DNA from: Amoebophrya sp. A120
Taxonomy: Eukaryota; Protista; Dinoflagellata
DNA length: 64,000 bases
Direction of reading: 5' to 3'
NCBI GenBank assembly: GCA_905178155.1
Contig: CAJINV010000002.1
Span: 3,787,838-3,851,837 of the forward strand
Positions 20,101-64,000 of this stretch are shown here, in pieces. The stretch's first letter is position 1, and each line of letters starts with the position of its first letter. The notes below the pieces were generated by a model, which ran no database searches, was not told the origin of the DNA, and saw only the letters and a list, made by a program, of their open reading frames with translations. The translations under genes and the position numbers were made by a program.

Positions 20101-23100
20101 AACGCGCTTAGCTGTTACAACCTCAAGCGTTACGATAGAATATGGAAATCTGTGATGCAGGGAGTGCATGATCTACCGTAGTCCCATAGGTTTGCGCATG
20201 ACAAGTTTCGGAACCCGAAACCCGACTGGTATCCGGCGAAATTTGTATTGCGAAAGGCGCAAAGCTACATACGTTCCTCATGCTCTTCATGCAAGACAAA
20301 ATCCAGACTCTATTGTAACGTTTGAGATTGTAACGTTTGAGCAGGTCATACACAACCAGCTCAGCTTCTGCGTGCAGAGACGGTACCCGCTTCTGCCGCC
20401 CGAGGCAGAGCTCGGGTACCTGTATTTGACAAAAGTCTTGAAAACCGAAGAAGAAGCACTGAAATTCTACTACGAGCCTGTGGTCAAGGTGGACGATGTA
20501 GAAGTAGTAGATTCTGGCGCTGGAAGTACGAGTACAACCGCCGCTGGTGGCTCAACTAGTGTGAAACAGGAACTACAAGGAGCTGCGAACGAAGCCACAG
20601 TGGTAGAGGACCCCACGAGCGACTCGTCCACACTAGACCAACTGCAGTTTTTGCCGCAGCTGGAGAAGAAAAAGCGGAAGGTATCGTTTGTGAAAACGTC
20701 CCCACCCCAGAGTTGTCATGCAAATCTGCATGCTGGGAACATTTGAAATGTTCTCAGCATGCAGATTTGCGAGAAATGTTACATTTCTCATGCGGAGCCC
20801 GATGAGAGGCGTTTTCTAGTCGTGTTTCGGAATTCTTCATGCTCCAATCAGCATTTCGTGCTAGATCTGTGATGCTGCTGAACTAGCTAAACAGCATTAC
20901 ACTACGAGGCCAAACTTGTCGCGCATAACTCCCAAAACTTGGAGATTTGTGTTGCAACTTTACCAACTTGACTATGGGGTGGACGTTTTTCCACAGGATA
21001 CAAGGCGAAGGCCTGGGCGAAGATTCTGCAGCTGCTGGACCGGAGTGCCAAGGTGTTTGAAAAGCTGGAAGCGGTTCAGCGGGAGTACCAAGAAGAGGAC
21101 AACAGTGTCGTGAGAACAAGTTCTACAGGTACTATAACGTCCCAACTTCTGGAACCCTCCGAGGAGAAGGAAATTCTGGCGAAAATGCGTCGGAAGCTGT
21201 TCCTCACCGAGAAAGTAACACCAAGTAGTAGCACAGTCACGGGTCTTTCTCGTGAAGGAGGGGAGCAGGTGGAGAAGATGGCCAGCGCAGCAGCGGCCAC
21301 CCCGTACGCGCGTCGCCAAAGGCAGCTGCATTTTGAACGGGTGCGGCAGTCGGAGTTTCGGCGGATCCGGGGGGTACCAGACGAATTTTGGATGAGTCCG
21401 GAGCAGTTGGAAACCCTGCACGACGTCCCGTTGCTGTTCGCGTTGCCGTATCAAGTGCAAATATCCCTGGATGTGGTCTGGAAGAACTCAAGTTGTGATG
21501 CCGCATTTGGATTCCAAAAAAATCTGTATTGGATGAGCAGCAAAGGGAAAAGTGCGTTTTTTTCTACGCGGAGAGGGCATTTGCCATGTGGAATGGGCAT
21601 CAAGAACCTTTCCAAAAATCTGTGACGCGAGGGCATGCATCACAGGCATCATGGCTCGTGCAAGACGTGCATGACAAGTGTCAGAACCTTCCAGAGGCCC
21701 GGGACATGTTTGCAGTTGATATGCCGATTTACGACTACGTGATCTCCAACTCGTTGCGGCTCTTCGGCACCTTTGTCGAAAACGAATTGCTATCCATTGC
21801 AAAGATGTCTCGGTCTGGAAGATTCTTGCAGGCATTTGCCATGCTGGTTTTGCATGACCCAGAAGTTCTGGAATGCGGGGTCTAGCATCACAAGCCTTGC
21901 GAGAGCTTTTCCATCATGCCTACTCCGCATGACAAATCCTGTCTCAAGGTGGCCAAAGATCATTGCCAGCTCTTGCTAAACACGCATGACAGATTTTTTT
22001 GTGGCTGTCAGACAGCATCACAAGCTTGTATCTTTCCACACCCAGACACATGTTTGCAATGCATAATTGCAGTTTTTGACCGGCCTGTCCATTCCGGGAG
22101 ACATTTTCGTGGACGTGGGCGCGAGTATCAGAGTGCACAAGAACTTGTTTTCTGTCTCCCTCATTTATCATGTGCTGACTTCTGCCCATTTAATTTCGCG
22201 TGCTGCCTTTCGGCACTGTTGGCATGAGCATGACAAAGTCTTGTAGCGCCGGCGGCGCAACAAGCAGGACTACAATCCGTGCGTTGATGGTGTGCGGTCA
22301 ACATATGCGGGAACTACTGTCAGTCTTGCGGGAAGAACGACGAGTCTGTTTTGCTTATTGTCTTTCTATGTCGCTGCTGCTCTACGCCTGCATCAAATGA
22401 TGATAATTAGGAGGAATGGACGAGCATCAAGTTCTTCTGTCCTCGCTCATAGCAAACCAGGGCGCCTACGCGATTCCGATGGCGAAATGGCTCTCCTTGG
22501 GCGGGATTCCCAGTTGGCACAAAGTCAAGCGGACGACGCCGAGTGTGTTTCGGGACGACGACGGCAAACTGCGGAAGAAATGGTGGGGAAAGGAGTTTTT
22601 TGATAAAGAAGCATCGAAGAGCGGAGGTGATGAAGATTATACCCCTCTTAAAGACGCACAAGCAGCGAAAAGAAATGCGGCAAGAGATGAAGAGGAACAG
22701 CCTGCTCAAAAAAGTACTGGATTCGTTGATAAAGGAAAGGGGAAGGGCGATAGAAGGGAAATGATAGAAATGAAGCAATTACCTTCCGCAGTCCCGGCGG
22801 CCCACGGAACAATCATCCCGGAGGAAACGCTGGCCGCGCAAGTGACCGCTGCGGCGACGACCACGATGGTGGATGGTATTCTATCCACTGCAAAAGTATC
22901 GTAGTCGTTGTATAAATGCACGTCTTGCATTACAAATCTTGTTCCCAAGGCAAAATAGCATGACAAATTCCATTGCTCGCGCTGACGAAATTTGTCATGC
23001 GTTTCGTACTAGTACGATGCTTTTGCATTTCATACATTCTCGCCCCAGTGCAGTACGAACCCGGCCACGTCTACGCCTTTGAGCCGTTCCGCACGCTGTA

Positions 23101-24944: not shown

Positions 24945-25779
24945 TTTTTGTAAGGGGGATTTGTATAGTATTTGATATTCGGTAGTTGCTCTCTGTTGAA
25001 GAGGCTGTTTTACAGAGCTAAGGGAAGTTTTTCGAAAAAATTGGAATTGATCATGGAGGTGCAGGTGTGGTATGTCACTGCTAAGCACAAGCTTTTTCTA
25101 CATAGATAGATCGTGACGAGACGGGGCGGTCACGCACTTTTGATGCGGATAATTGAATAGATGATTTGAGTACTACCACCTTCATGGATTGACATTGACA
25201 AGCGCGACATGTTGAAGCAGTTCTTTCTCTCAACTGTGAGTGTGCGCTGTGAAAGCTCACTTTTCGTTTACTGCAAGCAGGAACAGGAAGCCGCCCCAGG
25301 AGGACTTCGTTTGGCAGACCTGTGTTTGATAATGACGGGTAGGGTGGTTCTGCGGAATTTGTAGGCCGCTCAGGGTTTTACTTTTTCCTCGCGCTGATCG
25401 CGCCAAAATGCTTTCTCCGCTGGTCCGCGAGCGACTTTCATAGAGAGTGGAGAAAACTCCGACTCAAATGTCAGTGGAGGCGTCGTGACACAGCAGCTGT
25501 GCTGTTGAGAGCGCAGGAGATGCGGGTGCTAAAGGGGTGCTTTTTGACCGAAAGCGGTTCTTGTCTGAGTCGCTTTTCTTTGCAGCAGATGAAAAGGGGA
25601 TGACCGCATGGTGAAAAATTTTGTGCAGCGCCACTCAGGCGGATTTTTGCAGTTACTATACTGGAGCTGCTGCTGCTCTACGTGGTGTTTCCTTCGGAGG
25701 TGCTCTATGGCTGATTCCGATCTTGTTGTGCTGCTCGAATTATTCGAGTACGAGTTGATTTCACTACACTAGGGCGTGT

Positions 25780-28700: not shown

Positions 28701-31700
28701 ATGCTTGGCTGTGCATTTTTACAGGGCATTCACTAGCACTCCCAACCCAGCATTACAAGTTTCCAGACCCAGACATCTACTTTGCAATGCATAAAACGCA
28801 ACCACAGACCACTTGTCCGGCTACCGCTACGTCGTAGTCGACCTTCCGGGACAGACAGACGCCAGCTATCCGAGGTTTCTGTCCGTCAGTATGGTGAAGG
28901 TTTTTGGCTCGAGTGGCGCAGAGGCAGGAACGACAGGTGCAAAGGTAGTCGCGAGTACCACCACGACCCCGCCCTTCGCCTCCGCCTGCCACGGCTGCTA
29001 TGAAATGCAAATATGTCCTCTGGGTCGGGAAGATTCTGAGATTTGTCATGCAGTTTTTCCAAGCTCCGCCGAGTCTGGAATGCAGAGCCTAGCACCACAG
29101 GATCTGCAGCCCCTTTGAGATGCCTGCTCTGCATGAGAAATGCCCTCCCAGCATGACCAGAAATGAGCACGACCTTTTGCAAGTCACGCAACACAGATTT
29201 TTGTACGATCCGCAACATGCATCACAAGTTCGCATCCTTCTAGACATCCAAGCATATTTGCAATGCATAGCTGCGGAGCGCGGACGAAAGAGTGCTGGAG
29301 CCAGTGCGGGAAATCGTCCAGCGCCGCCAAGTATTCTGTGCAAAAGTATCGTACTCGTATTGCAATCATGCATTACAAATCTTTTTCCTAAGGTAAATCA
29401 GCATTACAGATTTTCTTTCCCATGGTGAGGAGATTTGTAATGCATTTATACGAGTGCGATACTTTTGCAGTTCATAACAAGGAGTGGTGCGCAGCCTGCG
29501 CTACAGAGCCGAGCGAGAGTAACCGCAAGGGGAATTGCTGTTCGTTCGACAAAGCGACCGGGAAGGTGAAACCGGGCCAGGTCGAGGGCTGTATGGTGAT
29601 GAACCAAGATCTATGAACTGCAAATATCCCTGGATGTCTGGAATCTTGTGATGCAAGGAAGGGAATAATGAAAACACTGTAATGCGCTGCCCCGCATGAC
29701 AAGTTTTGCCGTGGTCTTGAGTTGCGTACTCCGCATGAGACGATGTTTTTTTTTTTTGCATGACAGGCACGACGAGGAGCTCTTCGCGGCCACGCAATAC
29801 AGAGTTCAGAGGCATGCCAGACTAGCATGACATATCTCGCATCAATCTTCCAGACCCAGAAATATTTGCAGTTGATAAGACCCCAATCCCGAGCGGTTTT
29901 TCACATCCGACTACTTGACGCATTCTCAGCAGAGCAGTTACGGTTATCGTAAGGGAAAATCCTTCCTCCCCATATCGAGAACGAAATATGTGATGCTGTA
30001 TTTGAGTACACAAGTCGACTTGTATTGCTAGAAGGCCAAGAGCCGCAGTTGTGGCCTCGTTTGCAGGCAATTTGTCATGCTGTTTCCCCCTTCCAGCTGC
30101 CTCCTGTCATGCTGAAGATGCAAGGCTTTCCCACGCCACCCAGCGCTACAGTCCGCATCTTTTCCCTTGTAGCATGACAAAATGATTTGTGTACACAAAT
30201 CCCGCACCACAGACTTCCATTTCGATATGGGGAGGGGGGATTTTTCATTTTGATGTCGGTGCCTGCGTGGTGTTCCCGTTTCCGCAGCCGGACGATCTGA
30301 TATCAAGAAGAAAAATCCCCCCTCCACGTATGAAAACGGAAATCTGTGATGCAGATTTGTGGTCACAGATCAGCTTTGTCATGCTAGAAGGAAAGGCATG
30401 CGGAGTGTAGTACTGGCTGGCGTGGGAAAGCCTTGCGCCTTCGGCATGACAGAGAGCAACTGGAAGTGGGAAACAGCTTGACAAATTGCCTACAAACGAG
30501 GCCACCTGCGGCTCTTGGCCTTCTAGCATTACAAGTCGACTTGTGTACTCAAATACAGCATCACAAATTTCGTTTTCGATATGGGGAGGGGGGTTTTTTC
30601 CTTTTGATATCTGATCCGCCCGGACGACACCTGCTTTTCGCCAAATAACGGTTGGTATGAGACGATTGCGCAACCCCACCCTCCCTCTCATTTGTCATGC
30701 AAAACCCGAAGTCTAGTGCTTGCTTTGTGGTATTTTTCGCATGACAAAATTTTTCCGCAATCCCAAGCAGTACTATGGTCGGCGCATGAACTTGTCATGC
30801 ACAGGCTCCACAAGTGCTGGTGTTTGTATTGCTGTCCATGCCATACAAGTACAACAAATGAGGGAGGGTTGTGGTCTCTCATAGATGGAGCAGTCTGGAC
30901 ACGAAGAGTTGCGAGTGCTGGCACACGTGCGGGGAAAAGTATGCAAGAAAAAAACTGTGTAAGTGTAAATCTGTGATGCAGAAGATGCAAAACAGTTACA
31001 CTTGTCATGCTGGAAGTGCGTCATAGGCTACTATCATACGTGTTTGCACGTACGTAGCTGCGCGTGACAGGTTTTCCCTGTAATGCAAAACAAACTTGTT
31101 ATGCTGCTCTTCCTACAAAGTTACACTTACACAGTTTTTTTCCTGGATAAAAAGAGCGGGAAGTGCAGTAAGTGCACCCCCGGGTCGCCGACCTCGGAGC
31201 ATTACGAGGTATGCATTGCAAATATGTCTGGGTCTGGAAAAATGTCAGGTTTGTCATGCTCTGCTAGCATGACTGTCAAGTCTGTCATGCAAGGTACTCA
31301 AAGCCGCCACTTTTGTGTCATGCAAAAACCTAGTTTCTCTTTCTCATGCAGAATAGGCAACACCTAGCAACTCAAAAACCTGTCATGCTGAGCGGTCATT
31401 TCTGGCGTTCTCTTGCTTCGCCAACCAGCATCACAAGTTTCCAGACCGAGAGGTATTTGCATTTGATACGAAGGTGCCTGCTGCAAGAAGGACGACGCAG
31501 CGAATGCAGCAGAGTGTGTATTACAATGAAAAATGCCCCCACCGCCCCCGAACTTGGCAGCATTTGTATTGCAAACCTTTCCAATGGAAACATTCCCCGT
31601 CTTGCATATCTCAGCATCACAAATTTTCCTTGCTGAAAAGCTCAAATTTGTGTTGCGAAGGAGCCCAACAGCAGTCGGATCTGTTATGCACAAGACACCT

Positions 31701-34842: not shown

Positions 34843-35808
34843 ATGGTTCGCGCTTCCAGCCTGGTTCTCGTGCTGCAGGCTTTTATGAAATGCAAAAATG
34901 TCTGCGTCTGGAAGAATCCGAAATTTGTTATGCTGTTTTTGCATGACACAGAATGTCTGTCATGGAAGCCCTAGCATCACAGATTTTCAGAGGCCTCCCT
35001 GATGCCTATTCCGCATGACAAATGCCCTCCACCACGCGTAGCACAAACCGGACTCCTCTTGCTGGTCATGCAAGACAAAATTTTTTAGAGTCCAAAGTTA
35101 GCATCACAAGTTCCAACCTTCCAGACCCAGACATTTTTGCAATCCATGGCTTTGTCTCTGCAACAAGAAGTGCAGAATGTGTTCGGACTGCGTTTGCAGG
35201 CACGTGCACGTGCTCGCTCGGCTTCCCCGACCTACGGTCGCCGCCTGCCGCTCCTGAACACACGCGACGATCATGCCCGACCGTCGCGTTCCGGAACCCC
35301 TCCGGCCGCCGGGGCAGTAGCCACTCACAATGCTGCCCCCGCCGGTCCGTCTGCGGTTCTAGTAGGTCCGCAATCCTGCTTGAAGGGTGCTGCTCGTACT
35401 CCGGCCCGCGCCATTCCCCATGAGCCCCGCCGCGTGTGTTTGCCCCCGCCTGGAGCGAAACCTGAAGTGAGAGAGGTTGACATAGCGGTGACAGGGAGGT
35501 TCGTAACGGCAGACCCAAATTGGGAAGAATTGGAAGACGTCGAAGGAAGTTGTCCCGACCCAGATTCATCTTTCGCCTCTCTGCATAACGATTTGAACGT
35601 GGCAGCAACAAATGCAGCAACAAATGCTTCTCGGGCTCAGACTCGGGCGGAGATTCTGGCTCAGACAACTGCGGCTCAGGCTCCGGAGCAGATTTCGATG
35701 GGGCAACGCTGTTCGAGGCGCTGCAGTTCTCGGTGCTCTGCGTGCCGCCATTCTCGGTGCGGTGCGTGCTTAGGATCGGGGTCTACCGCAATTGCCGCTT
35801 ACGGATAG
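34843..35808 (+). CDS. Small putative secreted protein, paralogue A (one element-intron at 34884-35148)
   Basis: Spliced N-terminus MVRASSLVLVLQA|LSLQQEVQNVFGLRLQ nearly matches the intronless paralogue at 38611. Both share a Cys/Arg-rich C-terminus ending AYG. Confidence 0.75.
34884..35148. mobile_element. Family A introner absent from the paralogous gene
   Basis: Repeat GCTTT on both sides. The paralogue reads CAGGCTCTGTCTCTG uninterrupted at about 38644-38658. Confidence 0.92.
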
Positions 35809-36911: not shown

Positions 36912-37234
36912 TATTGAGAGGAAAAATCCCCCTTCCCCATTATTGAAAAGGTATGCTTCCGAAAATTTGCGTTGCTGATTTGAGACCACAAATCACGTCT
37001 GTCTTGCAAGAAGACAAGCGCAGAGGTTTCCGCGCCAATATGGATGCGATTTGGCATGCTCTTGGGCCTAGGCGACAACCGTTTCTAGTGCTAAACAACT
37101 AGACCCAAACTCCCCTACCTAGGCTGAGGATCTGGCTGCGATGCCTTACTGCAATACAGCGCGCATTTGTGTACGGAAATCCAGCGTCAGAGGCTTCGCG
37201 TCGATATGGGGAGGGCGGGTTTTTCCTTATGATA
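36912..37234. mobile_element. Family C element outside any recognised CDS
   Basis: Family C TIRs with GCTTT on both sides. The paralogous empty site near 39910-39930 has a single GCTTT. Confidence 0.9.
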
Positions 37235-39108: not shown

Positions 39109-40019
39109 GCCAGTTGGGAATTTTCTGAGTCGTGGAACCTCGTGGAAACAGATTTCTTGGCATGTGTCGGAATAGATCTGATGCGAAGCACCGTGAAGGC
39201 TTTGAAGCGTGTCGTTGCAATGCTCAGATTCGTTGAGCTGATGAGCTCACTCGGATCAGAAATTAGTTCTACCGGGTTTGGTGCCCCAGAAAGCTAGCAG
39301 CGCCCCACGTGTCGCTTGCTCTGCGAATTATTGTTCAGAGAGCAAGCGACACGTGGGGCGCTCATTTGCAAGTCTCGCAGGCGACAGGGAAAATCTGGGT
39401 TTGGAGAGTTGCGCAAGAAAGTATGACTCACTTAAACTTAGTTGCACGTGCTGACTTGTGGTCCTTCACCAATCGTGCTATGCAACAGAATAGACAACAT
39501 GACCCACAACATGATCCTCCGTTTTGGAAAATTCCCACTTGGCGCTGTGACACCATCGCACACGTCGGATGCGGTGGTCTCGTGGCGGGAGCGTTTTTGA
39601 CGGGAACAGCCCAGGCTTCTGCTGTTGTTACTGGAACAGCCTGTTGCTGCATTGCGGGTGCCCATGGTACCTGCGTACGTCACTGCGGTAACCACGATAG
39701 AAGGTAAAAATCTGTGGTGCGCTAACGCTCTGCAGAGATTGGAGGGCTTCAGCCAGGAGCGTGGAACTAAGTACTTATTTCTGCAGCAGTCGCGTGAACG
39801 GAAATCCCACTTTATTCGGAACTATGTTACTTAGTTTTACATGTGACGCAAGCACTCCCGATGTTGGTGTTTATTTCGTAAGCTGCGGGAGAGCAACTTT
39901 TCACGATGTTGATGCTTTGCTGACTGCTGTATGCTCGGGCGTGACCAAAGAATGCACTCCACCGTCCGTAGTTCATGAAAGACTATTTCCAGTGCGCTTT
40001 TTCTTTTTTTTAAGGACAT

Positions 40020-48287: not shown

Positions 48288-50143
48288 TATCAAATGTAAA
48301 AATGTCTGGGTCTGGAAGGTTAGAACTTGTCATGCTAAATCTGAATGATGCAAAAATCTGTGTTGCGTGAGTACCAAAAGCTGTCCGCTTTTGACCCAGT
48401 TGAGAGGGAGTTTCTCATGCAGGAAAGGCATGACAGAGACCTCACAAAATCTGTCATGCTGGGTCTCACATTCCAGACCTCATGGGTCATGGAAAACCTG
48501 CCTCATGGGTCATTTTCTGTAGGGCAATGCCACCCTCGATTCTTCACCCCCAGGGGGTTGGGGTCCCCTCTTCCAATGTGTATTGGTTGAGGACTGCCCC
48601 CTTCATCCTAAGTGCCATCAGCCATGGTATCTGGAAAANNNNNNNNNNNNNNNNNNNNNNNNNNNNNNNNNNNNNNNNNNNNNNNNNNNNNNNNNNNNNN
48701 NNNNNNNNNNNNNNNNNNNNNNNNNNNNNNNNNNNNNNNNNNNNNNNNNNNNNNNNNNNNNNNNNNNNNNNNNNNNNNNNNNNNNNNNNNNNNNNNNNNN
48801 NNNNNNNNNNNNNNNNNNNNNNNNNNNNNNNNNNNNNNNNNNNNNNNNNNNNNNNNNNNNNNNNNNNNNNNNNNNNNNNNNNNNNNNNNNNNNNNNNNNN
48901 NNNNNNNNNNNNNNNNNNNNNNNNNNNNNNNNNNNNNNNNNNNNNNNNNNNNNNNNNNNNNNNNNNNNNNNNNNNNNNNNNNNNNNNNNNNNNNNNNNNN
49001 NNNNNNNNNNNNNNNNNNNNNNNNNNNNNNNNNNNNNNNNNNNNNNNNNNNNNNNNNNNNNNNNNNNNNNNNNNNNNNNNNNNNNNNNNNNNNNNNNNNN
49101 NNNNNNNNNCTGGTCTACGGGCCAGTAGCTGGAAGAATAAAAAGCCCTTTCTCTCCGTAGTACCTACTAGGTAGGTGCTTAGATAGTAACTCTGTTCTCT
49201 ATCTTCGGACAGCATGCTAGTGAGCATGCCTAGTCCCTGACGCTTGAGACGTCCACAGAGTTATGAGCCCAACCATTCCCCAAGTGGGAAAGGTAAGAAC
49301 TACTAGCCCCCTTCCCCCGTAGGTCCCTGCATAAGAGCAGCGGACGAGCCACCCATGCTCAGGGCTGTAGTCGCCTCCCTGTGTGGCTATGCCGCGCTTG
49401 GAGTGCCAGAATAGCGCAAGGCGCTAGAAAGGGCAAAAGTCCCCTCGCACTGATTGGAGAAGAAAGATCTTCTGGGGATCTGGTCACGGTCTTGGTTTCA
49501 CTAAGATCTTTGCTTGGGGTCCTCATAAGAAGTTCTACACTGTGGTGGAGAAGATCTCATCAGCGTGGGGTCTTCTACAAATTCTGGGTTCACGCGCCCA
49601 AAGGTTCCTGATCTTAATTCAGGATCGACATTAGGTTTCTCGTAAGAAGCTATTTAATAGCTGTAGCACAGATTTCGAATCTGCTCCCTGGGGCGCTTAA
49701 CAAACTTCACTCAGGTGGTGCAAGCTAGCGGGGAACTGCAACAAGCTCGCACAAGTGCCAACGCGGTGCGTTGGTGGAAAGCAAGCAAGCTCGGGGTAGC
49801 TGTTCGAGAAACAGCTTGCAGGTCCAGTCGACGCCTCTGTAGGGACAGAGGCGAATGAGGATTGAGGTTGAGCAACGAGCTCAGGCTCGTGTGAGAAGTA
49901 TAATGTAGTCTGAGTCGGGCCTATTACGGCTCGAAGTCGTAGCTTCGGTTGTCTCGGTGCATCGAAGGAATGCCGCGAAGGCGCTGCCACCGGGAGTGGT
50001 AGCCGCCTACCGCGAGAACGGTTTTGATGTTCACAGATTGGAGGCACATGCTGTGCATGGCAATTTTTGTGACGCGTTCTTTTGTGATGCATTCCGCTTC
50101 ATGACAAATTCCGTTCTTTACGCGAACGCTTTTTTCTGTTATG

Positions 50144-53100
50144 GAGGTACTGAAAGAGGACTTATCAAATGCAAAAGTGTCTGGGTCTGGAAGATTCTAA
50201 ACTTGTGATGCTGTCCGTGGAAGATTCCAAAACACTTTGTATTGCATGACCCGCAATAGGGGCCGGGCTGGTAGTCCCACTTAAGGACGAGGGCATCTCT
50301 CATGCGGTAGAGATTATATCACAAAGCTTTCTAAAAATCTCTGATGCTGCGGCATGCATCACAGACATCATGGCTCATGTTATTTAAGATATGCATGACC
50401 ATAAATCTAGAACTCTTCCAGACCCAGACATTTTTGCATGTGATAGGACTGCTTGGCAAACTATTTGACTGGCGCGTGCATTCTGTACAGCAAATGCGAG
50501 CCTAAAAGGTTGGACAGGCAATACAAACCCGAGTTTTTCGAAACCGTGCCCGGACTGGTTTGTGACGACGGCAGCTGCGTGTTCAACGATGCGACACCAA
50601 TCGCACTTCTCCTCACCTCCTACGTGCGGTTCGGCCGTCCCGGTGGCGTGCCCGAAATGGAGCCCCCGCAAGACTGCACGGGGTCATGGAGTGTAGCAGC
50701 TTCGGACGCGGAGTTGGAGCAACAGTGCACCGGCACGGGAGAGACCCTCACGCGCAAGTACACGCAGACCCAAGCCGCGGCAAACGGCGGTGCCCCCTGC
50801 GAGGCCGCAGACGGAGCTGAGAGCAGTTTGAAGTATCAAATGCAAAAATGTCTGGGTCTGGAAGAATGCAAGTTTGTCATGCTTGTCTGGCATGACTCGA
50901 GAATCTGTGTTGCATAGGCGCGATACGGCCCTCTTACCTGTCATGCAAAAACGCAGTTTGCCATGCGGAATACGTAAGACATGGCACCCAAAAAATTTGC
51001 CATGCATAGCTGCGTATTGTAGTGCGTCTCTCATTCACTTTTGGCATTACACCCAGACATGTTTGCAATCCATATTGAGTGTCCTTGTGATAAAGCCGGA
51101 TACCATGATATGCAAGAAAAAAACTGTGTAACTCTGTAATGCAGACGCAGAGCATGCAACAGAGTTACACCTGTCATGCCAGACAAGCGTGAAGTCCTCT
51201 TTTCATGTGTGTTTTCCCTCACATGTAGAGCCACGCATGACAGGTTTTCTCTGTCATGTAGAGCAAACTTGTGATGCTGTCAGCCAAAGAAAGTTACACG
51301 AGCACAATTTTTGTCTTGGATACACGAGGACACCGCTGCAGGCACTTGCACGCAGAATGTCTGCACTATGGAAGCGTCAGGTGCGGAATCGACAAAGTTG
51401 CAGCATTTTTTTGTCACGCATAAAGACGATGATGCCACCAGTTTGGCCCCCAATTTCTAAGCGGCGCATCACAAATGTTGGCAACACCTAAATGTAGTTT
51501 GCCGCGCTGTTTGGTGGGCAAAGAAGACTGTCTCTGTCATGCTACTTGAGCAGCTCTAGTATCTCTAGCCCCAAACAGTCCTCTTTACGCATTACGACTT
51601 ACTGCTCTGTCGATTTGTTCAAACCTGACACCCTCATATTGAAATGTGAGCACGGCGAGGAGGCGACTGGCACCGCTTGCACCTCGCGTGATGCGGTGAT
51701 CTGCACTGCTTGCACTACGGCCGGCTATCACAAAAGCGGGAACAACTGCGTGCAGAACGACTGCACTTGCCCGCACGGCAATGAGGCGACGGGGGCGGCC
51801 TGCACCTCGCATAATACGGAGATTTGCCACGATTGCGATGCTGGATACCACCTAGACGCTGCAAACTGCGTCGTGAATACCTGCAAATGCGAGCACGGAA
51901 CAGCATTAACGGGGCCACCGACGTGCGTAAACGACGATGTGACGGTTGGCTGTCAGCAAGGCACTTGCAACTCGGGGTATCACTTCGAAGACGATGGCTC
52001 AGCCAAAAACTGCGTCGTGAATACCTGCAAATGCGAGCACGGAACGCCGTTAACCGGGCCGCCGACGTGCGTCGACCATCAGACGACGGCTGGCTGTCAG
52101 CAAGGCACTTGCAACTCGGGGCATCACTTCGAAGACGATGGCTCAGCCAAAAACTGCGTCGTGAATACCTGCAAATGCGAGCACGGAACGCCGTTAACCG
52201 GGCCGCCGACGTGCGTCGACCATCAGACGACGGCTGGCTGTCAGCAAGGCACTTGCAACTCGGGGCATCACTTCGAAGACGATGGCTCAGCCAAAAACTG
52301 CGTCGTGAATACCTGCAAATGCGAGCACGGAACGCCGTTAACCGGGCCGCCGACGTGCGTCGACCATCAGACGACGGCTGGCTGTCAGCAAGGCACTTGC
52401 AACTCGGGGCATCACTTCGAAGACGATGGCTCAACCAAAAACTGCGTCGTGAATACCTGCAAATGCGAGCACGGAACGCCGTTAACCGGGCCGCCGACGT
52501 GCGTCGACCATCAGACGACGGCTGGCTGTCAGCAAGGCACTTGCAACTCGGGGCATCACTTCGAAGACGATGGCTCAACCAAAAACTGCGTCGTGAATAC
52601 CTGCAAATGCGAGCACGGAACGCCGTTAACCGGGCCGCCGACGTGCGTCGACCATCAGACGACGGTTGGCTGTCAGCAAGGCACTTGCAACTCGGGGCAT
52701 CACTTCGAAGACGATGGCTCAACCAAAAACTGCGTCGTGAATACCTGCAAATGCGAGCACGGAACGCCGTTAACCGGGCCGCCGACGTGCGTCGACCATC
52801 AGACGACGGTTGGCTGTCAGCAAGGCACTTGCAACTCGGGGCATCACTTCGAAGACGATGGCTCAACCAAAAACTGCGTCGTGAATACCTGCAAATGCGA
52901 GCACGGAACGCCGTTAACCGGGCCGCCGACGTGCGTCGACCATCAGACGACGGTTGGCTGTCAGCAAGGCACTTGCAACTCGGGGCATCACTTCGAAGAC
53001 GATGGCTCAACCAAAAACTGCGTCGTGAATACCTGCAAATGCGAGCACGGAACGCCGTTAACCGGGCCGCCGACGTGCGTCGACCATCAGACGACGGTTG

Positions 53101-56100
53101 GCTGTCAGCAAGGCACTTGCAACTCGGGGCATCACTTCGAAGACGATGGCTCAACCAAAAACTGCGTCGTGAATACCTGCAAATGCGAGCACGGAACGCC
53201 GTTAACCGGGCCGCCGACGTGCGTCGACCATCAGACGACGGTTGGCTGTCAGCAAGGCACTTGCAACTCGGGGCATCACTTCGAAGACGATGGCTCAACC
53301 AAAAACTGCGTCGTGAATACCTGCAAATGCGAGCACGGAACGCCGTTAACCGGGCCGCCGACGTGCGTCGACCATCAGACGACGGTTGGCTGTCAGCAAG
53401 GCACTTGCAACTCGGGGCATCACTTCGAAGACGATGGCTCAACCAAAAACTGCGTCGTGAATACCTGCAAATGCGAGCACGGAACGCCGTTAACCGGGCC
53501 GCCGACGTGCGTCGACCATCAGACGACGGTTGGCTGTCAGCAAGGCACTTGCAACTCGGGGCATCACTTCGAAGACGATGGCTCAACCAAAAACTGCGTC
53601 GTGAATACCTGCAAATGCGAGCACGGAACGCCGTTAACCGGGCCGCCGACGTGCGTCGACCATCAGACGACGGTTGGCTGTCAGCAAGGCACTTGCAACT
53701 CGGGGCATCACTTCGAAGACGATGGCTCAACCAAAAACTGCGTCGTGAATACCTGCAAATGCGAGCACGGAACGCCGTTAACCGGGCCGCCGACGTGCGT
53801 CGACCATCAGACGACGGTTGGCTGTCAGCAAGGCACTTGCAACTCGGGGCATCACTTCGAAGACGATGGCTCAACCAAAAACTGCGTCGTGAATACCTGC
53901 AAATGCGAGCACGGAACGCCGTTAACCGGGCCGCCGACGTGCGTCGACCATCAGACGACGGTTGGCTGTCAGCAAGGCACTTGCAACTCGGGGCATCACT
54001 TCGAAGACGATGGCTCAACCAAAAACTGCGTCGTGAATACCTGCAAATGCGAGCACGGAACGCCTTTAACCAGGCCGCCGACGTGCGTAAGCGACGGTGT
54101 GACGATTGGGTGTCAGCAAGACAGTTGCAATTCTGGGCATCACTACCAGGACGATGGCTCAACCAAAAATTGTGTGCTGAATCTCGCGAACCCAGTGTTA
54201 CCGCGCGGGTTTGGTATGCATTGCAAATCTAGTATCGTACTACCTAGTAGTAATCATTGCGTTACAAATTTCATATTTGTCAACTTGTTGGTGAAAAGTG
54301 GACTACGTGTAAAAATGCTGATTTTTTATTCCCTGCACATTTCTGTCATGCGAAGATATTGCAACTACTACGAAATGAAACTACGCAGGCGATAGTACTT
54401 TTGCACAGGATGTTCGACCTCCATCTGCAGCTGGCGGACGGTGTCACGGACGTGGCTGCGGCTTTGCAGACCTTGAAAACGGCTGTGAAAGTATCCTGTG
54501 TAAAAACGTCCCCACCCGAGAGTTGTCATGCAAATCTGCATGCTGAAAATGTTTCTCATGCGGAGCCCCATGAGAAGCATTTTCCAGTCATGTTTTGGGA
54601 TTTGTCATGCTCCAATCAGCATGATATACTAGATCTGTGATGCTGCTGAGCTAGCTCAAACAGCACTACGATACGAGTCCACATTTGTCATGCAAAACAG
54701 CCGAAGCTTGTGGATCTTGACTATGGGGCGGGGACGTTTTTACATAGGATAGAAAGCTACGGTCGGCGAGTTTTTCCAACAAACCGCGGGCATCGCGTTG
54801 ACACCGGAACAAATCTATCAAATGCAAAAATGTCTGGGTCGTCTGGAAGAGTATACACTTGTCATGCGGGTTTTCCATGACCCATGTGGTCTGGAATGCG
54901 GGACCTAGCATGACAGACTCTGTGAGGTCTTTGCCATGTGTGTCCTGCATGAGAAAGAACTTCGTCCCAACTGGGTTGACAGTGGACAGCTTTTGGTAAT
55001 CATGCAACACAAGTTTTCGCAGGATTCGGACTCAGCATGACAAGTTCCAACCTTCCAGACCCAGACATATTTGCAGTTCATAAAATCGAAAATGTCGAAA
55101 TCACGTTAAAAGACCCGAACGCAGTGTGTGTCCCGCTCAAATGGTACAGTCTCAAACGTTACAACAGAATAAATGGAAATGATCTGTGATGCAAGAAGTG
55201 CTGGATCTAGCCAAGCCTACGCCCACAGGGAGATTGCGCATGACAAGTGTAGTTTGAGTCCCAAGCCGCGCTAGAACCTGGCGAAATTCGTAATGTAGAG
55301 AGTGGAACGCTCTGCGATTCTATCATGCTCGTCATGCAACACAAGTTCCAGATGCTATTGTAACGCTTGAGGTTGTAATACCTGAGTAGGTTATACGGTG
55401 CCGCCGAATGTTGAAGTCGAAATAACCTTCGGCGTGCGCGTGGACAGCTCCGATGTGGATGAAATCAATGCCGTATGCATAGCAAATATCCATCTGGGTG
55501 TGGATTTGTGATGCGAGAGGTGAAGGACAGCAAGATCTGTAATGCCTGAGTACGATTGTTACCAATTTTGAATATGTCGTACAGGAAGGCAGTTTGTCAT
55601 GCGTTCTACGCTTAATTCTGCAACAAGCCTCGCGCAACTTCTGATGCTGTTATGCCGTGTAAGTGGCTACTCTGCGACGTGAGTATCAGCAACACAATAA
55701 ATTTTTCCCAGACGTCCACGGATATTTGCAGTTGATATGCCGCGTGGGCTCCCGATGCGGAGTTGTCCCCGACCGGGACTGAGGTGCAAGCGTTAAATTC
55801 GGCAGTAAAGAAAGCGGTCAATGAGGACCCGGCTATGAGTAACCAAATGACAGTCCCCGACACGAATGCAGTGCCAGGAACGGTCATCGTTACAACAACG
55901 ACAACCACGACGACCACGCCAACGCTTCTCCCAAGGGGCTTCGACCTGAAATTAGATCTCCCAGCCGGTGCTGACGTCGCGACTGCGCTGAGTGACCCTG
56001 TGTTGAGAAGCAGTGTGGCGGCCGGTCTGGTCGAATATCTAAACGCGAAACAGGTCGGGGTGACGCTGACAGCTGATCAGATTGCGAATTTGCAAATCAC

Positions 56101-59100
56101 GGAAAAGGAGGGACTCCTGGGTCAATTCGAAGTTCATTTTGATGTTGAGATTGATCCGGCGCATGTATGAAGTGCAAAAGCTTATCGTACAAGTCGGATT
56201 TGACAAGTTCTTCAGTGTTGTGTGACAGCACGATCTTTGTTTTTTCACCTGAAAATTCGCATGGCAATTTCCATTCCCGCATTTGAAAAAATGTGTTACT
56301 ACGGAAAATACTTCCTTACTTTTGCAATGCACATTAGTACTTCCTTACTTTTACTTTTTTACGGTGATGCTTTTGCAATGCACATTAGGCTGGACAAATC
56401 GATTTCGCCTGGGATCCTCATGCGGCTTTGACCGAAGCCGCGATGCAGAATTTAGGAGCAGAGCTGCGGACTGCCGTTAGCAACAATGCGGCTAACATGA
56501 GTATGAGTATATCAGTTCCCGATACTGACGCAGTGCCAGGAACGGTCATCGTTACAACAACCACAACCACGACGACCACGCCGACACTGCTACCCAGGGG
56601 CTTCGACCTGAAACTGCAACTTCCAGACGGTACTGACGTTGCGACTGCGCTTCGTGATCCTGCACTGAAAAGCAGCCTGGTGGCCGGGTTGGTTGAATTT
56701 TTGAACGGGCAGCCGGGTGGGGTAACGCTGACAGCTGACCAGATCGAGAATTTGCAAATCAGGGAGAAGGAGAATGCCCAGGGGCAATATGAAGTGCTTT
56801 TTGATATTGAAGTCGACCCTGCGGATGTATGCAGAGTGAAAGTTTTTTATCGTGCTGGGGCGAGAAGTTCTGCAATGTCGCATGACAAGTTTTTGCTTTC
56901 TATGTCTGAATCTGCATGAGAAACAAGGTCATGGCGCGGGGACAGAGTCCCCGCGCTGCGACCTTGCGGCGAAGAAGGGCCACCCGCGGCGGCTTTTCTT
57001 GCCCATGATGCGGCAGGTTTTTTTTTTGCGACAGAACGGGGTAGCTTGGCGCTCGTGGTGCCGGCGCCCCCCCTGGAAAAATGCGCCTTTTTCTGCGCCC
57101 CTGGGCGGGGCGCCCCCCCCAAAGGACTACCCACGACCAACCGAGGGCGCGGCCGTCCGGGAGGTTGTTTTCCCGAACCAGGGCGCGCGGGCCTGTTTCT
57201 GCGCCCCTGGGCGGGGCGCCCCCCCCAAAGGACTACCCCCGACCATGCGAGGGGGGGCGCGGCCACCTTCCTGGAGCCTGTTCTCCGAACCAGGGCGCAC
57301 AGACCTGTTTCTGCGCCCCTTGGCGGGGCCCCCCCAGCAGGACTACCCACGACCAAGTGAGGGGGGGGCGCGGCCTTCCTGGGGGCTGTTAGTTCGCTTC
57401 GCACTCCCGAATCAGGCCGCGCGGACCTGTTTCTGCGCCCCTGGGCGGGGCGCCCCCCCCCCAATGAATAGGCAGCCAATCTTTGGCCCCCGGGGTCGGG
57501 CCTGACTCTTGAAAAGCGGCCCCCGGGGTCGGGTGTTCCTTTTCCGAAGTCAGGTGGGGAGCATGTTTTGAGTTGTGCAGGAGGTTTTTGCCGATTCGGG
57601 TCGTGTTGGATACCCCCGAACAGGGGTCGGAACATACCCCGGAACACACCCCAGAACACACCCCGAAACACACCCCAGACCATGCCCCGAAAGCCACTTT
57701 CCGACAGTCAGGTCCGGGGTCGGGCCAGACTCTCGAAAAGTGACCTCCGGGGCCGGGTGTCACTTTTGCCGAGTCAGGTGTGGGGTATGTTTTGGGGGGT
57801 GCGTGAGGAAATGGCCGAGTTAGGTCGTGTTTGATACCCCGGAACAGGGGTCGGAACATACCCCGGAACACCCCCCGAAAACTCATTTTTGGGCAGTTGC
57901 TGCAGTTTAAATAGTAATTTCATTTTTACTTCTGCAAAAATTTTCAATCGCAGTACTAATTTCTAGTGCGATAGTACATCTTTTGCAAATGCATACCCTG
58001 CTGAAAAAGTCGACTACGCCTGGCATCCCGATGTGGCTTTAACTGCAGACGAGATGGAGACTTTGGGAACAAAGCTCCAGACGGCCGTTAGCGCAAATGC
58101 GGCCAACATGACCACGCAAGTAACTGTACCTGATCCCGCCGATGCTGTAACAGGAACGGTCCTCGTTACAACGACCACCACAACCACTACCACACCAACA
58201 CTGCTACCCAGGGGCTTTGACTTGAAATTGAACCTTCCAGCAGGTGTCAACAACGTTGCGAAAGCGCTGGAAGATCCCGTGCTACGAAGCAGCGTGGTTG
58301 CGGGTGTATTGGAATTTTTAAACGGGCAGCCGGGTGGGGTAACGCTGACAGCTGATCAGATCGCGAATTTGCAAATCAGGGAAAAGCCGGGGGTGTCGGG
58401 GGAGTTTGAAGTGCTTTTTGATATTGAAGTGGACCCTGCGGATCTATGCAGAGTGAAAGTTTTGTCGTGCTGGGGCGAGAGGTTCTGCAGTGTCGCATGA
58501 CAGATCTGGTTTTTATGTGTGAATCTGCATGACAAATTTCCAATTTTTGCTTCTGCAAAAATTTTCAATCGCAGTACTAATTTCTAGTGCGATACGACTT
58601 TTGCAAATGCATACCCTGCTGAAAAAGTCGACTACGCGTGGCATCCCGATGTGGCTTTAACCGCAGACGAGATGGAGACTTTGGGAACAAAGCTCCAGAC
58701 GGCCGTTAGCGCAAATGCGGCCAACATGACCACCCAGGTAACAGTACCTGATCCCGCCGATGCTGTAACAGGAACGGTCCTCGTTACAACGACCACCACA
58801 ACCACTACCACTCCGACACTGCTACCCAGGGGCTTCGACTTGAAGTTGAACCTTCCAGCAGGTGTCAACAACGTTGCGAAAGCGCTGGAAGATCCCGTGC
58901 TGAGGAGCAGTGTGGTTGCGGGTGTATTGGAATTTCTAAATGGGCAGCCGGGTGGTGTAACGCTGACAGCTGATCAGATCGAGAATTTGCAAATCAGGGA
59001 AAAGCCGGGGGTGTCGGGGGAGTTTGAAGTGCTTTTTGATATTGAAGTGGACCCTGCGGATCTATGCATTGCAAAAGTTTATTTATCGTGCTCAGGCGAG

Positions 59101-62100
59101 TAGAGGTTCTGCAGTGTCGCATGACAGATCTGATTTTTATGTGTGAATCTGCATGACAAATTCCCAATTTTTGCTTCTGCAAAAATTTTCACACGCAGTA
59201 CTAATTTCTAGTGCGATACGACTTTTGCAAATGCATACCCTGCTGAAAAAGTCGACTACGCGTGGCATCCCGATGTGGCTTTAACTGCAGACGAGATGGA
59301 GACTTTGGGAACAAAGCTCCAGACGGCCGTTAGCGCAAATGCGGCCAACATGACCACGCAAGTAACTGTACCTGATCCCGCCGATGCTGTAACAGGAACG
59401 CTTATTGTCACAACGACCACGTCCACAACCACCACGCCAACACTTCTACCGAGGGGCTTCGATCTGAGCTTGAATTTGGATCTCCCAGGGGACGGCAGCA
59501 CTGATGTCGCGACTGCGCTGAGTGATATCAAATGCAAATATGTCTGGGTCTGGAAGATTCTGAGACTTGTCATGCGCGTTTTGCATAAGACACGATGTCT
59601 GTGATGCATGCCCCAGCGCCACGGACTTTCTGAGGGCTTCTTGATGCCTATTCCGCATCACAAATTATGCCCTCTCAGCGTAGCAAAAATTGCATTCGCT
59701 TTGCTGCTCATGCGATACAGACTTTTTTGGAGTCCAAATGTAGCATCACAAGTTGCATTTTTCCAGACCCAGACATATGTGCAATTCATAAGTGACCCCG
59801 CACTACGAAGCAGCGTGGTTATATGGAACTGTCAGGATCGAAATTGACAAAATCGAAAAACTTGTGATGCATAAAATGCATGACGCGAAATACGTGTGTT
59901 GCAGAACAGGCAAGTGAGGCCGATTGTGAGCCTGTTTGAGGTTATAGCTCGAGCTGCTAGAGCAGCATGAGAGAATCAGTCTTCTTTGCCTAAACAGCAT
60001 TACAAACTGGATTTAGGCACCACCAGAATTTGTGATGCGCCACTTAGAAACTGGGTTCGAACTGGAATCCATCTTATGCATGACAAATCCTTTCGATTTT
60101 GTCAATTTCGATTCTGACACTTCCATAGGTTGCCGGTCTTGTGAAGTTTTTGAACGACCAGCCGGGAATGGGTGGCGTCACCCTGACCGCTGACCAGATC
60201 GTGAATTTACAAATCCGGCAAAAGGAGGGGGGAGAATCGGGGCAATTCGAAGTGCATTTTGATGTCGAAATTGATCCGGCGCATGTATGCAGTGCAAAAG
60301 CTTTTTTTTACTACAACTCGGATGTTGACGAGTTCTGCGCTGTTGCATGTAGACGCGATCTACCTTGCTTTCTTACTGGAAAAATCTGCATGATTTTATT
60401 CTGTTCTTGTTCCGTAAAACTAAAAACAACTTTGCAAATTGCACTTTAAGTGCAACTCTCATCAACTCGTGAGAAAGCCCGTGATGTGAAAGAAGTGCTT
60501 TTGGACCACTGCACACCATGCTGATTCAATCAACTCCGCCTGGGATCCCGCCTCGGACTTGCCAGAAACCGCGATGCAAAATTTGGGAGAAAAGCTGCAA
60601 ACGGCCGTTAGCGACAATGCGGCTAATATGAGCACTAACATCACGGTGCCCAGCACAGCTGTAGGCGGAACGGTCTATGCATTGCAAAAGTATCGTACTC
60701 GTGTAAATGCATTGCAAATTTCCTCAGCGTGAGAAATAAAATTTGTAATGCGGATTTCGATTTACCTTAGGAAAAAGATTTGTAATGCAAGTCTTTATAC
60801 GAATGCGATACTTTTGCACAGGATACGGTCATCGTGACAACGACGACCACTACCACCACCACACCAACACTGCTACCAAGGGGCTTTGACTTAACACTGC
60901 AGGTGCCAGCGGACTCCTCCGACGCCGAGATCGACGATGCGCTGCGAACATTGCCGCTACGCGACGCGATAAGGACGGCAGTGGTGCAGTTTTTTGTATG
61001 AAAGAGGCCAGTGAAAAGAGTGACTCGATCTGCTGGTGACAAGGCCCTTCTTGTGCAAAGAGGTTGTTTAAATTTGCCACGCAGCTTCAAGTTCAATCAT
61101 CTGTATAAAGAAAAATTGCCTCGACGAAGAAGATTCATGAAAAGTCAATGAATAGTCTTTTTGCAGTTGATGTTTTATTCGTCCAAGCTTAGGTTGTAGA
61201 GGACCTCCATGCAGTAGATCGATACATTTTTTTAGAAAATGCATAGTCTGAAAATAAATTGAACGACGTGACTCTGACGGAGGAGGAGATAGAAAATTTG
61301 CAAATCACCAAAAAGCTCGACGCCAGCACCCCTCCCACGGTGGAGGTGGAAGTGACTTTTGCGGTCCGCATTGACCCCGCGCATGCGAGTGCAGTAAACG
61401 AGGCTTGGGATCCGGACGCTGTTTTGGGGGGCGAGGCGCTGGAAACGTTAGTCGAGGCAGTGAGAACCGCGTTTAATGCCATGGAGGAGGATCCTATTAC
61501 CGGTCCTAGTATAATCACGCTGCCCGATATGGAAGCGTCAGAATCGAGATTCGCAAAATCGAAAAACTTGTGATGCACAAAACCGATGCCAGTTGGGGCC
61601 TCAGTTTGCAAGCGGCGCAAGACAAATTGCGGGAGCACCCAAATCCAGTCTGTGATGCTGTTTGGACAAAGAAGAGTGCTCCTGTCATGCTACTCTGGCA
61701 GCACATTGCATACCCCTAAACAGGCTTGAAGTCGGTCTCTCTTGCCTGCTCCCCAATACAGGCCTGCAGTGCCCTACATTTTGCGCATCACAAATTTTTC
61801 GATTTTGTTGATTTCGATCCTGACAGATCCATACCCGAGGCAGGTGCTGGTACAACAGTGGTACAGCCAGTGATTGTGACCACGACCACAATATGCCTTG
61901 CAAATACGTCTAGGTCTGGAAGTATGCAACTTGTGATGCTGCATTTGGATTCTACAAAAATCTGTATTGCATGAAAAGCAAAAGAGGTCCAGTTTTTGCC
62001 ACGGCGAGAGGGCATTTCTGATGCGGTATAAGCATCAGGAAGCCCTCACAAAATCTGTGATGCTAGGGCCTGCATCACAGACATCAGGAGTCATGCAAAA

Positions 62101-64000
62101 TGTAAATGACAAACCTTGCATCCTTGCAGACCCAGCCATATTTGCATTTGATACACAACTACCACTACCACGACCACCACCACGACCCACCCGTTACTAC
62201 CCCGGGGTTTTGATCTGCAGCTGAACATATCAAATGCAAAAGTGTCTGGGTCTGGAAGAATGCAACTTGTGTGTGATGCTGCATTTGGAAGTCTAAAAAA
62301 TTTGTGTTGCATGAGCAGCAAAAGGAGAGGGCATCTGTCATGCGGAGTAGGCGGGAAGAATCCCTTTAAATAATTGTGATGCTAGAAGGGCATGCATCTG
62401 AGACATCAGGGCTCATGCAAACCGTGCATGACAATTTCCAGACCCGGACATTTTTGCTTTTGATAGAACATTCCCACAGCTAATGTCGCCGATGCGCTCG
62501 CGGATCCGGACTTGGCAAACGCAATGATAGGACAGTGCACAACTCCCCCTCCCCCTCATTGGGATGGTATCCGCAGCATTGCAAGTTCTGGCAGAAATGT
62601 AGCTTTTGCATGACAGACAAATTTACGACTGATTGTAGTGCTGTTTCGGCTTCGGGAATCTGTCATGCATAGTAGTGGCACAAGGCAGAAGGTGGAGTTG
62701 GTGTTTTGCATGAGAAATGAGAACGAGGGGGAGTTGTGCAGTGTCATAAACGAAGGCCGCGGTTGTGAAATTTTTGCAGACCACAGCGGGGTTGAGCGAC
62801 CTCACTATGGAACAGGTGGAAGACTTAGAGATTAGGCCGAAGGAAGGGACGCAACCACCCAACGTAGAAGTGGAAGTGACTTTTCAGCTGCGGGTATTGT
62901 GAGGAAAAGCGTCCCCAAGAACCCAGAGGAAAGATTTGGGGATTTTTTCGCTACACAAACCTAGAAGTTTTTGGAGTCAACACGCATGACAGTTTATTTG
63001 GCGTCGGAGTGTAAAAGCTGTGTTTCGTAAAAGTGCATCCACAATAAATTTCAAAACACCGCTAGAAAACGTTTCTTATGGGGCTGCGCATGAGAAACAC
63101 TTTGAGATTGCAGGTTCTTCGCGTGGCAAGTTCATGGGGTTTTCTGACGTTTTTCCTCAGGATAGCGGGTTGAGCCAGACCTGGTTGACCAGGTCAATGC
63201 AGTTTGGAATCCCGACGAACCGATGGCACAGGGTAGCGACGCACTGGCTGCGTTGGGGAGTGCGCTCAAAGAGAGCGTGAATGAGAACGACGAGCTAAAC
63301 ACAGACATGACGGTGCCGGAGACTGGGGGTGTGGAAACAGTCATTGTGACAACGACGACAATATCCAGTGGATAATGATGATGTCGTGCTCTTTGGGTCT
63401 GGAAAATAAATGAACTTGTGATGCAAGCCTGGGCAGGATGTCTGTGCGCACTGCAAGACGCAACCAAGCATGACAAGTTTCTCAGCTCCTATGTTTTATT
63501 CTTGCGTATAATTCCGCATCGCAGGAGTGGCAAACTGTGTTTTTTCCTGACAGGCATTCTTCGTGACCATATGCGTCTTCACAGCAAATGCAGGATCATG
63601 CCAGACAAGCAGGACAAAAGATCTAGCCTTTTTCCGGACCCAAAGATCAATATTTCCGAATCCATAGACCACCACGACGACCCTCGATCCAAACAGTTCC
63701 CCACCGCCCACGCAGCTCCGGGCCTTGCAATTTGGTCTCAACGCGGGGGAAACCAAGACAACCGAGGAAAGCCAGGCGCTGCTTGCCAGCGCGGATTTCC
63801 GGAATGCGATTGTGATCGGGTTGCGAACGTTTTTCGTGGAAAAAAATCCGGAATTGAGTGAGGATTTATCGCTGGAAGACTTTCACCCCGTGGACATCAG
63901 CTTGGCGAGTGGCGGTGGTGCTGCGTCTGCTCTGTCGTCGTTCATACAAATGAAGCAGAAAAAGACTGGTCTGTGGTCCAGCACGACAACACGGGGCAGT
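50144..64000 (+). CDS. Very large repetitive surface/mucin-like protein: TSP1/spondin-like module, 16 x 48-aa Cys-rich repeats, then about 8 SEA-like modules separated by poly-Thr linkers; both ends incomplete
   Basis: DCTGSWS...C...TRKY...NGGAPC; repeated TTTTTTPTLLPRGFDL...LRSSVVAG...LTADQI.NLQI...FEV.FD.E.DP. Elements at 50163-50445, 50834-51074, 51109-51322, 51367-51638, 54215-54412, 54492-54751, 54816-55082, 55127-55395, 55474-55737, 56166-56384, 56828-57995, 58445-58613, 59063-59237, 59526-59790, 59822-60127, 60286-60515, 60676-60825, 60997-61245, 61528-61833, 61892-62153, 62228-62465, 62528-62748, 62895-63164, 63362-63666. The frame stays open to the window end. Confidence 0.8.
51864..54167 (+). 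repeat. Coding tandem repeat, 16 x 144 bp (48-aa, 6-Cys unit)
   Basis: Unit NCVVNTCKCEHGTPLTGPPTCVDHQTTVGCQQGTCNSGHHFEDDGSTK. Central copies appear identical and edge copies are diverged. Confidence 0.95.
56924..57917 (-). mobile_element. Second Helitron-like element of the same family nested in an introner
   Basis: Same termini on the + strand (CAAGGTC...GCGCGGGGACAGAGTCCCCGCGC ... GCTGCAGTTTAAATAGTAA). Inserted at GCATGAGAAA^TTTC; sister introns 58445-58613 and 59063-59237 show the empty site. Confidence 0.75.
62528..62748. mobile_element. Introner family I
   Basis: TAGGACAGTGCACAACTCCCCCTC ... GAGGGGGAGTTGTGCAGTGTCATA; repeat AATGA/AACGA. Possible relative at 30656-30883. Confidence 0.8.

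Follow-up and report, generated by a model that had tools for sequence, protein, structure and literature searches.

A spliced introner with GT-AG ends in Amoebophrya sp. A120 and a candidate splicing code for its element family

The window analysed here is a stretch of 64,000 nucleotides of Amoebophrya sp. A120, and the focal intron lies in a gene whose product has Cys-rich repeats, runs of Thr and a domain of about 150 residues that is itself repeated (three repeat exons matched no Pfam family, and the matches of the Cys-rich exon were short and implausible). The intron occupies positions 56165-56388, is 224 nt long, sits between a His and an Ala codon and, as read from the sequence and a spliced contig, begins with GT and ends with AG. 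Its border letters, CAT/GTATGA...CACATTAG/GCT (slashes mark splice borders), with GCATG upstream and TTAGG downstream, are those given in the first-pass annotation, and the proposed 56164/56389 junction is carried by a single 391-nt RNA-type contig from run X1 (depth 4.5; 218 + 173 letters, 0 other letters). The joint can be slid by 1 nt, and with that latitude the ends are the GT..AG of U2-type introns. Run X1 is labelled 'RNA?'; we regard it as cDNA-like because in a second of its contigs, of 3,438 nt, eleven elements are skipped at equal depth, and because the joined frame is open.

Read along the + strand, the locus begins with the upstream copy of a target duplication, GCATG (56161..56165), whose first four bases are exonic and whose last G is intron position +1; an intronless paralogue reads GCG CAT GCG. 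The 5' terminal inverted repeat TATGAAGTGCAAAAGC (56166..56181) provides the T at +2 and is predicted to pair with the distal of two 3'-end copies, which is the one spliced. The proximal copy (56309..56337) ends in a second TTAG, 51 nt upstream of the acceptor, differs from the distal copy by a 22-nt insert and is unused in the one contig seen; splicing there would add an in-frame stop. Between the two copies lies a pyrimidine-rich stretch (56338..56368) with three YTNAY-like words at -42, -36 and -28, which are weak 5-nt motifs. The 3' terminal inverted repeat GCTTTTGCAATGCACA (56369..56384), its ATA decayed to ACA, is followed by the downstream copy of the duplication, now TTAGG (56385..56389), of which TTAG is intronic and the final G exonic. 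The direct repeats have decayed to two of five matching bases, and the terminal inverted repeats keep 12 of 15 terminal pairs in an intact hairpin, which is predicted to bring the intron ends together (z=-2.37). The 3' end is among the three most pyrimidine-rich of 77 elements in the window; a branch-point-like word is present in 25 of those 77, and any use of such words in the focal intron is a candidate function only. With terminal inverted repeats of 8-20 nt that start with TAT and carry a later A-run, direct repeats of 3-5 nt at the exon borders and removal from the transcript in one contig, the focal intron is genuine: it is spliced, was made by a transposon and belongs to a known type, the Amoebophrya A120-type introner.

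Paralogous introns occupy this site in five repeats of the gene (starting at 56165, 56827, 58444, 59062 and 60285, all on the + strand), and the sixth repeat is intronless. The empty target (61367..61400, + strand; IDPAHA) is continuous in a spliced contig, 61249-61522, and its GCG CAT GCG indicates that the target was GCATG and that the donor G was inherited. Nearest to the ancestral pair of copies, GCATG and CCATG, is the intron at 60285..60519 (GT..AT), whose junction is found in runs X1 and X2. The others have borders predicted from sequence: 56827..57999 (GT..CT), which is enlarged by a nested GC-rich insertion, and 58444..58617 and 59062..59241 (both CT..CT), which lost the donor G to C in a single shared event. 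Polarised by the four other introns, the change of the downstream copy from CCAT to TTAG took place in the focal intron alone. Since introns at this site are about 70% identical between lineages (identity ~0.7), several changes in the four free bases are unremarkable. The first-pass claim that this element had been converted to a canonical intron is therefore half right, in that the AG was gained and the GT donor was inherited from GCATG; the paralogue cited as retaining GCATG and CCATG without AG is indeed so built, shares the GT donor and lacks the AG alone. The annotation overlooked the three further paralogous introns, the intronless paralogue near 61375, and changes in the opposite direction (58444/59062, 59821 and 31209-31472). 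One of these, a neighbouring introner at 59821..60131 (+ strand, AT..TT), has lost its +1 G.

The window holds at least 77 elements with the form of a 5-nt copy, TAT...ATA and a second 5-nt copy, and in 45 of the 77 the copies are identical. Excising the elements yields long open frames in four genes. The spliced frame at 760-5000 (- strand) resembles, by its motifs, a putative cyclic-nucleotide-binding protein, and that at 22066-24950 (+ strand) presumably ends in an FkbM-like methyltransferase domain, likewise judged by motifs. Paralogous sites without an element have the 5-mer once, as at 39911 with its single GCTTT, which establishes the 5-nt duplication. Filled and empty sites are paired in two paralogous small genes (34884-35148 with 38643, and 36912-37234 with 39911). 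We also weighed a 3-nt duplication with G..C-ended repeats and rejected it, since the copies of most elements are 5 nt long and can start with any base. An unrestricted inverted-repeat scan proved too noisy. Not counted among the 77 are the duplicate segment 13795-17092, an element at 36912 that has no gene context, the intron at 16920, which is rearranged, and the one at 26798, which is canonical and has no TAT repeats; nor are two elements, at 48288 and about 756, for each of which one end was not found.

Several features of the window lie beside the introner population proper. Segments 9290-12587 and 13795-17092 are 3,298 nt each, 100% identical and flank an N gap, and are likely an assembly duplicate. 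The introners at 17689-20067 and 56827-57999 contain nested GC-rich insertions (about 17742-19965 and 56921-57920) with ends common to both, a GC hairpin beside one end and satellite arrays within, and these represent a second mobile element. The GT-AG intron at 26798-26961 lacks TAT..ATA repeats; its inverted repeat is short and imperfect, GGT stands at each border, and it may be ancient or belong to another family. At 16920-17083 (and 12419) an introner has lost the outer parts of both terminal repeats; its frame is kept as GT..CA, and an AG close by is not in frame with the GT. The element at 48288-50140 opens as an introner and runs into an N gap, after which comes about 1 kb of unrelated sequence, either non-coding or mobile; its right end was not found. 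About 16 tandem Cys-rich coding repeats of 144 nt (51719-54182; 94-98% identity) have no introner inside.

To enlarge the sample, we used a pattern scan that yielded 150 loci (551 kb) in JACKZZ01 contigs; their elements belong to the same families as those of the window, which they resemble at 75-95% identity; the focal copy could be grouped no further than with its four paralogues. Viral contigs gave 0 matches. The element caller recovered 70 of 73 short elements of the window and called 490 in the contigs, of which 304 could be oriented by coding score; strands in this contig set are thus predicted ones, and a check on the window gave 0 wrong strands in 51 and 1 false call. After dropping 14 contig calls with three repeat mismatches, several of them mis-paired ends, and two near-identical paralogues, the pooled set comprised 365 elements (75 from the window and 290 from the related contigs).

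Where these elements are cut can be read from RNA-type contigs covering 54300-63900, a region with 19 elements and 15 listed junctions, 8 of which are uninformative as their two copies are identical. Letting r be the number of upstream-copy bases retained in the exon, the seven informative junctions allow r = 2-5, 4-5, 0-4, 1-5, 3-5, 3-5 and 4-5. Only r = 4 fits all seven, which has a probability of 0.013 under a uniform random register, the data being seven junctions of one gene and one sample, as assembled contigs; a mixture of registers 4 and 5 would fit six of the seven. In register 4 the intron starts 1 nt before the 5' repeat and ends 4 nt after the 3' repeat, so that the first T of the repeat falls at intron +2 and GT-AG ends result if, and only if, the 5-mer is NNAGG. 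The element at 20681..21004 (+ strand, borders predicted from sequence), rightly described before as GT-AG compatible, would on this register have been canonical from its insertion, its target being GAAGG. At 31209-31472 the exon copy reads AGG and the intron has no AG, a candidate loss of canonical ends in which the difference is synonymous in the exon and the direction of change uncertain; L005:306, L020:4232 and L027:3777, where the exon copy is NNAGG yet the intron is not GT-AG, are further candidate losses. We found no fixed register in the text of the Amoebophrya literature, of which Fig. 3 and S19-S25 of PMC7789003 may show the +2 T, and none is given in the accessible parts of PMC12130899, PMC11282704 and PMC13326754.

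The pattern of decay also sets the two ends of the element apart. Because the caller is blind to strand, both ends would be expected to decay alike. In the pooled set, however, the T at +2 had changed once (to a GC donor) against 14 changes of its 3' mirror base (p=0.001; 3 vs 14 with two doubtful calls included), and the A at +3 had changed twice against 10 for its mirror (p=0.04). The control position, +4 T, changed 8 times against 3, which speaks against strand-biased mutation. L003:1358 is the sole credible element with a base other than T at +2. The first dinucleotides of the 365 elements are accordingly GT (124), AT (94), CT (83), TT (63) and GC (1). U at +2 contacts U6 in the catalytic core of the spliceosome, and the fixed register together with the U at +2 would favour a spliceosomal route over a tRNA-like or self-splicing one. 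In Table S4 of PMC7789003, which is affected by aligner choices, T is the second base in each of the 18 predominant non-canonical classes (9 per strain), and all 9 of those from A120 begin NT.

At the neighbouring position, +1, a weak preference for G may act on the donor alone, at insertion or later, leaving the 3' end free and the focal AG a product of drift. We consider this doubtful, though it is the alternative with the most in its favour. G stands at +1 in 125 of the 365 elements (34%) as against 29% in the flanks (p=0.044, uncorrected); changes to and from G number 9 and 5 (6 from G if the dropped paralogues are counted), which is not significant; and the one +2 exception (GC) and the RNA-confirmed +3 exception (GTG) both carry G at +1. 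Against a donor preference, the test on all four bases at +1 gives p=0.18, and the exon copies of the contig set have G almost as often (96 vs 98 of 304), which codon position could explain. At 8719, 22125 and 54214, which the first-pass annotation had singled out, the fifth base of the upstream copy is indeed G where the downstream copy has C, A and A, and these are the three G gains among the +1 changes of the window, beside two independent losses and four other changes. In the window, the 32 elements with unequal copies have G at +1 in 15 intronic and 15 exonic copies; the weak, uncorrected excess is that of the pooled set. Compensation between +1 and -1, as in AT-AC introns, was not found (p=0.88), and although position 4 of the duplication had fewer mismatches in the window (4 vs 10-13), the pooled set did not bear this out.

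A second alternative holds that the cut can fall anywhere in the 5-nt duplication, the bias to T at +2 having another cause such as strand-biased mutation. The Fig. 3 legend of PMC7789003 suggests such variable borders, more than half of the junctions seen here are uninformative, and the element at 59821 can also be read as GT..AG in register 1. We think it unlikely, given the one register common to all seven informative junctions and the lack at +4 T of the asymmetry seen at +2. The register is likewise limited to 4 or less by the +1 change at 59821 and by paralogue-conserved residues at 54214, 51366 and 58444.

A third alternative, proposed in the first-pass annotation as a general process, is that introners are driven stepwise to GT-AG ends by selection as their hairpins decay, and so enter the ordinary spliceosomal route. 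There are observations that would suit it: the focal intron gained an AG, a pyrimidine-rich tract and YTNAY-like words; a second GT-AG gain is found in the contig set (L018:281); the three gains and the pooled excess of G at +1 have been described above; and a biased conversion of GA to GC is reported in Symbiodinium, according to the available text of bioRxiv 10.1101/2020.10.14.339549. The most decayed contig calls also tilt slightly this way, the 14 dropped for three mismatches having AG in 4 vs 2 and -1 G in 7 vs 4. The counts as a whole speak against it. In the 32 unequal-copy elements of the window, AG occurs in 2 intronic and 2 exonic copies and A at -2 in 8 and 11, and a simulation of these elements expects 0.40 new canonical introns where 1 is seen, so that the single focal conversion is no more than chance. 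Among the 365 pooled elements there is no net movement toward GT-AG: 25 end in AG against 24.9 expected, 10 are GT-AG, canonical status was gained twice and lost four times, and changes to and from the consensus number 6 and 13 for G at -1 and 5 and 7 for A at -2. In the contig set, the 80 elements that carry one or two mismatches show 1 gain and 3 losses, matching the 1.0 and 2.7 of a neutral simulation. Nor did AG or +1 G show a trend across repeat-decay classes in the 304 oriented contig elements, and the enrichment of GT or AG in older copies beyond base composition, which the annotation had itself made the test of its proposal, is absent from the 365 for AG and for GT-AG. The counts cover elements with recognisable repeats, the oldest introns, whose repeats are gone, being invisible to the method, and taking the exon copy as the ancestral one does not work at synonymous sites. 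With the sister copies at 58444 and 59062 having lost the donor G, and the focal hairpin intact, general stepwise conversion appears decidedly improbable. Selection confined to the focal locus, which has a pyrimidine-rich 3' end and three branch-point-like words, is possible.

That the TTAG and the duplicated 3' end stem from mis-assembly of a gappy short-read scaffold is highly implausible: the window does contain N gaps and a 3,298-nt perfect duplicate, but the RNA-type contig agrees with both exons throughout (0 differences) and TTAG is present in both 3'-end copies, which are told apart by the 22-nt insert.

Taken together, we regard it as quite probable that the focal intron, derived from a non-autonomous transposon in a population with no net movement toward GT-AG, owes its GT..AG ends to inheritance and drift. 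An A120-type introner would have inserted at GCATG and then been copied along with the protein repeat; the donor G would have been supplied by the target, and the 3' AG was likely produced by neutral drift in the intronic duplication copy. Elements of this kind would share one fixed register, N/[N-TAT...ATA-NNNN]/N, with the paired inverted repeats possibly setting, like a ruler, where both cuts fall, and would read GT-AG exactly when target or drift gives NNAGG. The spliceosome would depend on U at +2, and probably on a purine at +3, but on neither G at +1 nor a 3' AG; if it is indifferent to the latter two, canonical ends would carry no detectable advantage. We lean, with more reserve, toward a single splicing code, exon/N-U-A...hairpin...NNNN/exon, in which a U1-less spliceosome measures both cuts from the terminal hairpin, retains of the donor only U at +2 (and a purine at +3) and has dropped +1 G and AG, leaving GT-AG ends selectively invisible. 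This candidate code matters more than the focal GT-AG intron, and bears on how Amoebophrya splices without detectable U1. The fixed register and invariant +2 U would turn an unknown border into a testable rule and permit correct re-annotation of genes. If the code is true, any target gives a clean intron, which would explain how tens of thousands of elements have invaded coding exons.

The element class and its canonical-looking members are already in print. As far as the available text of Farhat et al. (2021, PMC7789003) goes, the A120 introners described there share with ours the inverted repeats that start with TAT and carry an A-run after about seven variable bases, the direct repeats of 3-5 nt, a length of about 240-270 nt and mostly non-canonical ends, and 15% of canonical A120 introns carry the same repeats; over 60% of Amoebophrya introns are non-canonical, and most spliceosome parts are reported, U1 not among them. 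In that text the borders are variable or unknown and no conversion test is given, whereas one register and a constraint at +2 U would apply here. More broadly, we found no conversion test in the Amoebophrya literature within a scope of openly available text, outside figures and subscription papers. In euglenids, the 'intermediate' intron 9 of Euglena agilis hsp90 (Milanowski et al. 2016, PMC4770533, in the portions available) is likewise one homologous hairpin-type copy with near-canonical ends, GC-AG, for which possible conversion was proposed, and GT/C donors were judged no sign of kinship with conventional introns; it differs in lineage, in its conserved pairing of +4..+6 with -8..-6, in the purine at +1 and in the lack of conservation at +2. 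The Euglena nonconventional code (Nomura et al. 2025, PMC12501133, as far as its accessible text shows) also has a paired motif whose spacing to the two exon borders is fixed, but reads N3CDG..CH'G N5-6/R, has been shown genetically and has no U at +2, where the form here would be N-TA..N4, inferred only. Euglena-type CAG/CTG pairing at +4..+6 with a purine after the 3' border was not found in the window or pooled elements, whose pairing starts at +2 with TAT and in which all four letters occur at +1 and at the first base of the exon. Closest in mechanism are the Polarella class 12 and Symbiodinium introners, for which Roy et al. (bioRxiv 10.1101/2020.10.14.339549) scored splice-site conversions and, in the text available, describe a 5-nt NNAGG duplication whose last base and the first base of the element together form the donor. 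Their targets are restricted to usable sites and conversion is biased from GA to GC, whereas A120-type targets are unrestricted and no bias is seen at the acceptor. The null conversion result also sets this lineage apart from Symbiodinium, where splice sites convert directionally.
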